Shown: positions 586-1,010 of the stretch, piece by piece
Layout of the letters: every line of letters begins with the position of its first letter
How positions within the stretch are numbered: position 1 is the first letter of the stretch
Virus record (IMG/VR): IMGVR_UViG_2917403263_000002
Direction: 5' to 3' (one strand)
Length of the DNA stretch: 4,434 nucleotides
From: a virus
Lineage: Duplodnaviria; Heunggongvirae; Uroviricota; Caudoviricetes
Program-made: the position numbers and the translations under genes
The notes under the pieces: generated by a model
Databases searched by the model: none
Seen by the model: the letters and a program-made list of their open reading frames with translations, nothing else
What the model was told of the DNA's origin: nothing

Positions 586-875
586 TATGCAAGCCTCACA
601 ATGTAGTTAAATGCGATGTTTTTGACGGTGTTTTCCGCGTTACCAGCAGCGTTAACGGTGATGGTGTGTCCATGTGAGCCAATCGCAACAGAGTGCGTAT
701 GAGCACCAATACCGACAGTATGTGCGTGAGCACCTGCAGATGCAGCTGTGCCGCTGACACTATGAGTGTGCGCTCCTGCAACACTTGTATTCACACTGGC
801 CGCAGACACTACCTTATGTACTGACCCATTTTGTGACCACTGGCTGCCCCCTGCGTATTGTCTGTCAGCGCGGTT
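585..875 (-). pseudogene. stf: 3' fragment of side tail fiber gene (stf), about the last 95 codons, with no 5' portion
   Basis: The minus-strand frame is open from about 881 to the TAA at 587..585 and encodes ...[91 protein letters not shown]. It has His-rich GAHTHSV-type repeats and a C-terminus as I recall for lambda Stf. There is no ATG start; the ORF track begins it at an internal GTG (809). Upstream the frame runs into sequence that encodes the bet C-terminus on the other strand, so the gene is truncated at about 870-880. The 5' boundary is approximate. Confidence 0.7.
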
Positions 876-1010
876 GACGACTTATTGCCGCTCTGTTCCC
901 AGATATTTCGCCGCGACATTCGCGCATCGTCAGAACTGACACAGGCCGAAGCAGTGAAAGCTCTTGGATTCCTGAAACAGAAAGCCTCTGAACAGAAGGT
1001 GGCTGCATGA
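876..1010 (+). pseudogene. bet: 3' fragment of bet (Red beta single-strand annealing protein), about 44 C-terminal codons
   Basis: The plus frame ending at TGA 1008..1010 encodes ...[44 protein letters not shown], which matches the C-terminus of lambda Bet as I recall it. The stop overlaps the exo ATG as ATGA. In-frame sequence upstream of about 876 ([13 protein letters not shown]) no longer resembles Bet and is preceded by an in-frame TGA at 834..836, so there is no start or N-terminal body. Confidence 0.8.

Follow-up and report, generated by a model that had tools for sequence, protein, structure and literature searches.

Gene content of the window

The window, that is, the whole stretch of 4,434 bases that was analysed, extends exactly from the tfa stop codon at one end to the int stop codon at the other. 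Its minus strand carries an intact tail fibre assembly gene, tfa (1..585; 194 aa; Pfam Caudo_TAP, E = 1e-44), the product of which shares 94% amino acid identity with lambda Tfa and 97% with Tfa of phage PhiR29_1, in both cases over the full length. Next to it lie remnants of stf on the minus strand and of bet on the plus strand, and the remaining genes are all encoded on the plus strand. Among these, exo (1007..1687; Pfam YqaJ) specifies an intact lambda exonuclease of 226 aa that is 99% identical to lambda Exo over its full length, and its start codon overlaps the bet stop codon (ATGA).

The region between exo and xis (1678..2926) is occupied by accessory genes that are full length and 96-100% identical to those of phage 1H12. 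Four were assigned by Pfam, namely orf60a/DUF1317 (1678-1866), orf63/DUF1382 (1839-2030), a TraR/DksA zinc-finger gene (2421-2639) and a DUF4222 gene (2687-2926), and the fifth is an ORF of 93 aa (2041-2322). Genes of the exo-xis region modulate lambdoid development and host physiology. A terminator-like hairpin followed by a T-run, AGGGAGCT-ACA-GGCTCCTT TTTTATT, is found on the plus strand at 2343-2361, in the interval of this leftward early operon that separates the 93-aa ORF from the zinc-finger gene, and an inverted repeat with a 16-bp stem is located 5' of xis (2934-2972).

Both site-specific recombination genes are intact. The excisionase gene xis (3066..3302; 78 aa; Pfam Exc) encodes a protein with 100% amino acid identity to the 1H12 excisionase, and int (3292..4434; 380 aa; Pfam Arm-DNA-bind_1 and Phage_integrase) encodes a tyrosine integrase of the phage 21 type, with amino acid identities of 99.5% to 1H12 Int, 60% to e14 IntE and 35% to lambda Int. 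An earlier reading of this DNA, made from the sequence only, had listed int, xis, the exo-xis genes, exo and tfa as retained, and all of them prove to be full length.

The stf and bet remnants and their joints

The DNA between 585 and 875 is entirely derived from stf, but in two pieces. The first piece (fragment A; 585..846, minus strand) holds the last 86 codons and the stop codon of stf, with a Pfam Phage_fiber repeat. When window positions 560-846 were compared with the stf 3' end and tfa start of E. coli prophages and phage PhiR29_1, the identity was 99.3-99.7% (E of about 1e-146 to 1e-163) and all matches ended at 846; against lambda tfa/stf, positions 1-734 are 93% identical. The second piece (fragment B; 847..874, minus strand) is an island of 28 nt. 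It belongs to a 31-nt perfect match (843/845 to 873/875; E of about 7e-13) to the same stf genes on the same strand, placed 616 bp further upstream and about 0.9 kb from the stf stop codon (positions 3902-3932 and 4900-4930 in two references with intact stf genes, L004 and L005, respectively).

A three-way comparison with these two intact genes places the joint of the 616-bp deletion, J1, at 843..846, with a microhomology of TG (against L004) or GCTG (against L005), i.e. 2-4 bp. The stf offsets on either side of J1 are 616 bp apart, which is not a multiple of three (616 mod 3 = 1), so that the deletion shifts the reading frame and fragment B is out of frame with fragment A. A minus-strand open frame of 97 codons nevertheless runs to about position 880, crossing J1 through the out-of-frame stf piece of 29-31 nt, and this continuation is a chance effect. 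The sequence-only reading had given the stf remnant as about 95 codons, and this has to be shortened to the 86 contiguous ones.

The second joint, J2 (875), connects stf to bet. Base by base, 874 is found only in stf, the T at 875 is common to both parents and 876 is found only in bet, while the local sequences (GGTT in stf versus GGAT in bet) form an imperfect 4-bp match. Beyond it, the last 44 codons and the stop codon of bet (876..1010, plus strand) are preserved with 98% identity to lambda bet, and the alignment of window positions 872-1700 with lambda bet-exo is gapless over 829 nt (97.7% identity). The remnant encodes the last 44 of the 261 Bet residues without the native start, and 43 of the 44 are identical to the end of the C-terminal domain of Red-beta (PDB 8TFU residues 41-84; 6M9K 25-67). 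An exact look-up of the 56-aa bet' ORF, with Met as first residue, returned the source NCBI contig alone.

These alignments agree with the earlier assignment of the two segments to a tail fibre gene and to the end of bet, with stf homology up to 875 and bet homology from 875/876, and also with the claim that both remnants lack a start codon and a 5' body. Their truncated 5' ends face one another and abut at 874-876, and stf' and bet' read outwards from the joint, which is the geometry expected of an internal prophage deletion running from the 5' part of bet to the 5' part of stf. The microhomology that the earlier reading had proposed to look for at the join amounts to 2-4 bp at J1 and 1 bp at J2. 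Such short microhomology (1-4 bp) at a joint is typical of illegitimate recombination without RecA. The loss of the phage core that had been ascribed to one large deletion thus stands, but the scar comprises two joints, J1 within stf and J2 between stf and bet.

Support for the assembly and rarity of the allele

The source contig, which was located through an exact-protein look-up of Tfa only, is the 412-kb VATQ01000006.1 of NCBI assembly GCA_005781135.1, and the window is 100% identical in it. A second NCBI sample possesses the same contig, and the window is also present at 100% identity in the Logan assemblies of two separate runs, SRR8835201 and SRR6148330, the latter being 99.98% identical over 9.2 kb with two indels, both outside the window. 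The joint is thus recovered in two NCBI assemblies and two read-set assemblies. The sequences stf and tfa are multi-copy in Escherichia (median of 2-4 places per genome), and one might therefore suspect a chimeric contig in which reads of two prophages were bridged by repeated tail-fibre sequence. However, the same joint recurs in separately assembled read sets, the overlap at the joint is just 1-4 bp and offers no repeat for an assembler to collapse, and icd and icd' stand in colinear chromosomal context on a single contig. Such an artefact has a negligible probability, and the stf::bet joint is not a misassembly, a possibility that the sequence-only reading had raised.

None of the 5426 complete E. 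coli genomes spans the joint, and an exact-match scan with 30 nt across J2 gave no hit among GTDB species representatives or JGI metagenome contigs. The allele is therefore rare.

The whole element at icd

In the source contig (L006), the window forms part of an element of about 10.5 kb that lies between two repeats of the icd 3' end. The repeats are 166 bp long, differ by 3 mismatches (98% identity) and are located 10.4 kb apart (L006 5875-6040 and 16280-16445). At the end of the window, the int stop codon is 114 bp from the icd stop codon, and at the far side about 245 bp of DNA matching the attP arm of 21-like phages lie ahead of the icd' copy; in the alignment this distal arm does not differ from 1H12 attP, and its identity to the phage 21 att/int record M61865 is 95.5%. 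In the icd system described for e14 and phage 21, the phage provides a new 3' end for icd, and the original one is left as the pseudogene icdC; the icd/icdC duplication at the e14 site is documented, and excision between the copies deletes the element. The expected attL and attR are accordingly found, as icd and as icd' with a phage-21-type att arm, but the adjacent tRNA is not, the integration site being icd.

Apart from six cargo genes, the interval between the icd repeats contains int, xis, five small ORFs, exo, bet', stf' and tfa. It was found to be devoid of a repressor, of N, O, P and Q, and of lysis, terminase, head or tail genes, and it holds no second or intact copy of bet or stf and no extra att hybrid. 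Nearly all of the phage-derived DNA of the element falls within the window. The picture of a mini-element that carries only accessory genes is right in respect of the lost core, but incomplete, since about 5.4 kb of metabolic cargo extends from tfa to attR.

Two features of the att regions may be mentioned here. The icd repeats have private variants in common, e.g. AATTAACGCTAAG and GACTTT, which are missing from other strains and from phage attP, a likeness that gene conversion between attL and attR, or else a crossover close to the 3' end, may have produced. Moreover, three close copies of TTCCCCAAAAC lie in the interval between the icd and int stop codons (L006, about 6100-6140); they are conserved in 1H12 attP and in other attL sites, and are candidate arm-type Int-binding sites.

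Cargo and host surroundings

The cargo (5.4 kb; L006 10586-16033) is situated outside the window, from the tfa stop codon to the att arm. Its six non-phage genes encode an SDR, an NmrA-type SDR, two alpha/beta hydrolases, the LysR regulator PgrR and QueH. Bases 11542-15249 are 98.1% identical to the chromosomal mpaA-mppA island of E. coli, where queH, intact in the cargo, is represented by a 75-bp relic. We discarded the idea that a large chromosomal rearrangement brought the mpaA-mppA island beside tfa, since icd' and the phage att arm come directly after the cargo, which therefore lies within the element. None of the 5426 complete E. coli genomes has the first SDR gene or its spacer, and the nearest species representative of the SDR protein is from Klebsiella sp. 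R390 (81%), with none from Escherichia. Klebsiella plasmids hold a 79% version of the cargo module, the module is missing from phage records, and no phage or plasmid record shows the cargo in phage context. The 122 bp that separate tfa from the SDR gene contain a perfect 11-bp inverted repeat, ATCCAGCCTCT ... AGAGGCTGGAT (L006 10592-10640), which may act as a bidirectional terminator limiting read-through into the phage arm.

The slot between tfa and attP is a hot spot for cargo across elements. For instance, a McrBC-like pair (AAA ATPase and McrC) occupies it in two E. coli remnants (L001 8568-11641 and L002 8567-11640), and the sitABCD metal transporter does so in the viable phage 1H12 (L091 5758-9207). 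The homology between elements stops exactly at the tfa stop codon.

For the host core genes phoP-purB-mnmA-rluE, the identity to complete E. coli genomes does not exceed 96.9%, a value below the 98.1% of the cargo, and pdeG of the source is only 79% identical. Past attR (L006 16495-20585), the iraM-ycgX-bluR-bluF-ycgZ-ymgABC block of E. coli is missing; in its place we observed a 113-aa ORF, a yeeN/YebC paralogue (89% to E. coli yeeN), a CxxCxxCC protein and a DUF302 protein. The identity of the core genes together with the divergent region past attR indicates that the host is probably a divergent, non-typical Escherichia lineage.

Relationship to 21-like phages and other remnants at icd

Judged by its integrase, its attP arm and the icd duplication, the element is an icd-integrating lambdoid of the phage 21 type. 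The arm int-xis-(exo-xis genes)-exo-bet' is 97-98.8% identical in nucleotides to 21-like phages (1H12, a Jouyvirus, and the SCU-482 prophage), with 98.8% from position 872/875 to the int stop codon. The 1H12-like phages share with the element the attP arm, an icd-like segment and the integration in the icd 3' end, as well as a variable cargo slot between the tail-fibre genes and attP, although the content of the slot differs (sitABCD in 1H12). In E. coli SCU-482, a full-length prophage at icd possesses the same int-to-bet arm and continues after bet with gam, kil, cIII and sieB. Compared with these phages, the element lacks about 37 kb, from about codon 217 of bet through most of stf, and hence the immunity, replication, lysis, cos, head and tail genes.

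The element also resembles e14 of E. coli K-12, a defective lambdoid remnant at icd with icd' (icdC) at its far end, tail-fibre/tfa remnants, and a defence or cargo gene beside attR. However, e14 keeps its repressor and is SOS-excisable, whereas the element has no regulatory region. Identity of the element with e14 was rejected, with Int at 60% and Xis at 36% amino acid identity and nucleotide similarity confined to a 63% stretch in int. A phage satellite of the PICI or P4-like kind was likewise dismissed, because no replication module and no helper-sensing or packaging-redirection domains were found among the element genes.

Two further types of remnant that have lost the core were identified at icd. 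The Z1323CEC0012 type (L002) is present in 7 of the 5426 complete E. coli genomes; these seven come from chicken, dog, human, food and cucumber. Its scar (L002 12585-13041) is composed of 129 bp of stf', a contiguous 333-bp piece of the O/P boundary, and exo without its first 9 codons; on the scale of the window, stf reaches to 713 and exo resumes at 1033. In the GDSC2227PM type, exo is frameshifted, and a macro-domain gene and a further stf fragment are present. Both types resemble the element in their locus, in the 21-type int-xis arm (Int 99.2%) and in the position of tfa beside the b region, and the other icd remnants also show multi-joint scars with a small island of the deleted interval. 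Nevertheless, they differ in their breakpoints, in the truncated or frameshifted exo, and in a McrBC-like cargo instead of the SDR, hydrolase, PgrR and QueH genes. Neither of the other scar types can be derived from the window arrangement, nor the reverse, and the decay at icd, as read from these scars, is therefore independent and stepwise across strains.

Origin of the remnant

We consider the element to be a cryptic 21-type lambdoid prophage in the icd 3' end whose core was lost by illegitimate deletions, and give this reading a probability of roughly 0.9. It is a cryptic or 'grounded' prophage in that the lytic-cycle genes are missing and bet' and stf' end at joints with 1-4 bp of microhomology. 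Loss of the interior in large deletions, with the att-proximal ends spared, is a textbook way in which prophages become grounded.

The ancestral order would have been attL-int-xis-(exo-xis genes)-exo-bet-...-immunity-O-P-Q-lysis-cos-heads-tails-J-lom-stf-tfa-b region-attR. From the microhomology we infer that RecA-independent illegitimate recombination at 1-4 bp removed the DNA from about codon 217 of bet to about 0.9 kb before the end of stf, which on lambda coordinates would correspond to about 37.4 kb (the right end from 32160 onwards and the left end up to about 21066), and a further 616 bp would have been lost within the stf remnant. The 28-nt stf island is most simply seen as the leftover of two successive deletions, and since small colinear islands exist both in the window and in the Z1323CEC0012 scars, successive deletions offer the simplest account; a single event with a template switch would produce an identical sequence. 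No pre-deletion relative with the same cargo and an intact core was found, and the ancestral state is rebuilt from mosaic relatives.

The two arms of the element have different best matches. For the stf/tfa arm these are PhiR29_1 and prophages elsewhere in E. coli (99% identity), for the int-bet arm 1H12-like phages (98.8%), in whose tail-fibre region nothing matches the window tfa. This could point to two phages, joined illegitimately from tandem or superinfecting 21-type genomes at icd. However, lambdoid mosaicism predicts different best matches even within one genome, L001 and L002 show the architecture tfa - b region - attR at icd too, and the genes run in exactly the order and orientation of a single prophage, with no extra att hybrid in the element, so that a two-phage origin appears unlikely. 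Still less probable, to the point of being barely credible, is the alternative of a small mobile element (a satellite or integrative island) that was built as such and had no phage core at any time. The compact form, the bounding att repeats, the intact int and xis and the presence of cargo would suit such an element, but the 5'-truncated, promoterless bet and stf fragments, one of them frameshifted, are remnants, genes for replication, helper-sensing or packaging are missing, and the same arm occurs in full-length viable phages. The decayed single prophage thus remains the preferred reading.

Present-day function and mobility

On its gene content, the element is unable to make phage. The lambda Red module (gam-bet-exo) is incomplete: with Bet cut to 44 residues and gam gone, Red recombination would be unavailable and the intact Exo is left as an orphan. 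Judged by sequence, both att arms as well as Int and Xis seem functional, and the suggestion that the element is potentially excisable holds at this level. In lambda, pL, N and cII drive xis and int. Here, pL, N and every regulator have been deleted, which makes the expression of Xis doubtful; with cII lost as well, excision would need read-through transcription or the Int/Xis of a related phage. Scans for consensus promoters and terminators around the joint performed no better than on shuffled sequences, and the SDR-hydrolase operon points into antisense tfa and onward to exo-int. Excision is plausible, and the most likely routes of element loss are homologous recombination between the 166-bp icd repeats, which would remove the element precisely, or Int/Xis supplied via read-through or a related phage.

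The remnant might instead be a domesticated, Int/Xis-mobilisable cargo island and not passive junk, although we regard this as improbable. Several lineages have independently and repeatedly cut 21-type icd prophages down to int-xis-(exo-xis genes) plus tfa, b-region cargo and attR; under that reading, the SDR-NmrA-hydrolases operon, with its transcription directed towards bet'-exo-...-xis-int, could replace the promoter lost with pL, and excision or the expression of the exo-xis genes could be coupled to PgrR. The element should be annotated as a cryptic 21-type prophage, with bet' and stf' marked as pseudogene fragments. The stf::bet scar represents a new, rare allele of a familiar kind of prophage decay and changes no concept; what it offers is a gutting of a lambdoid prophage resolved to the base, which is useful to studies of prophage decay.
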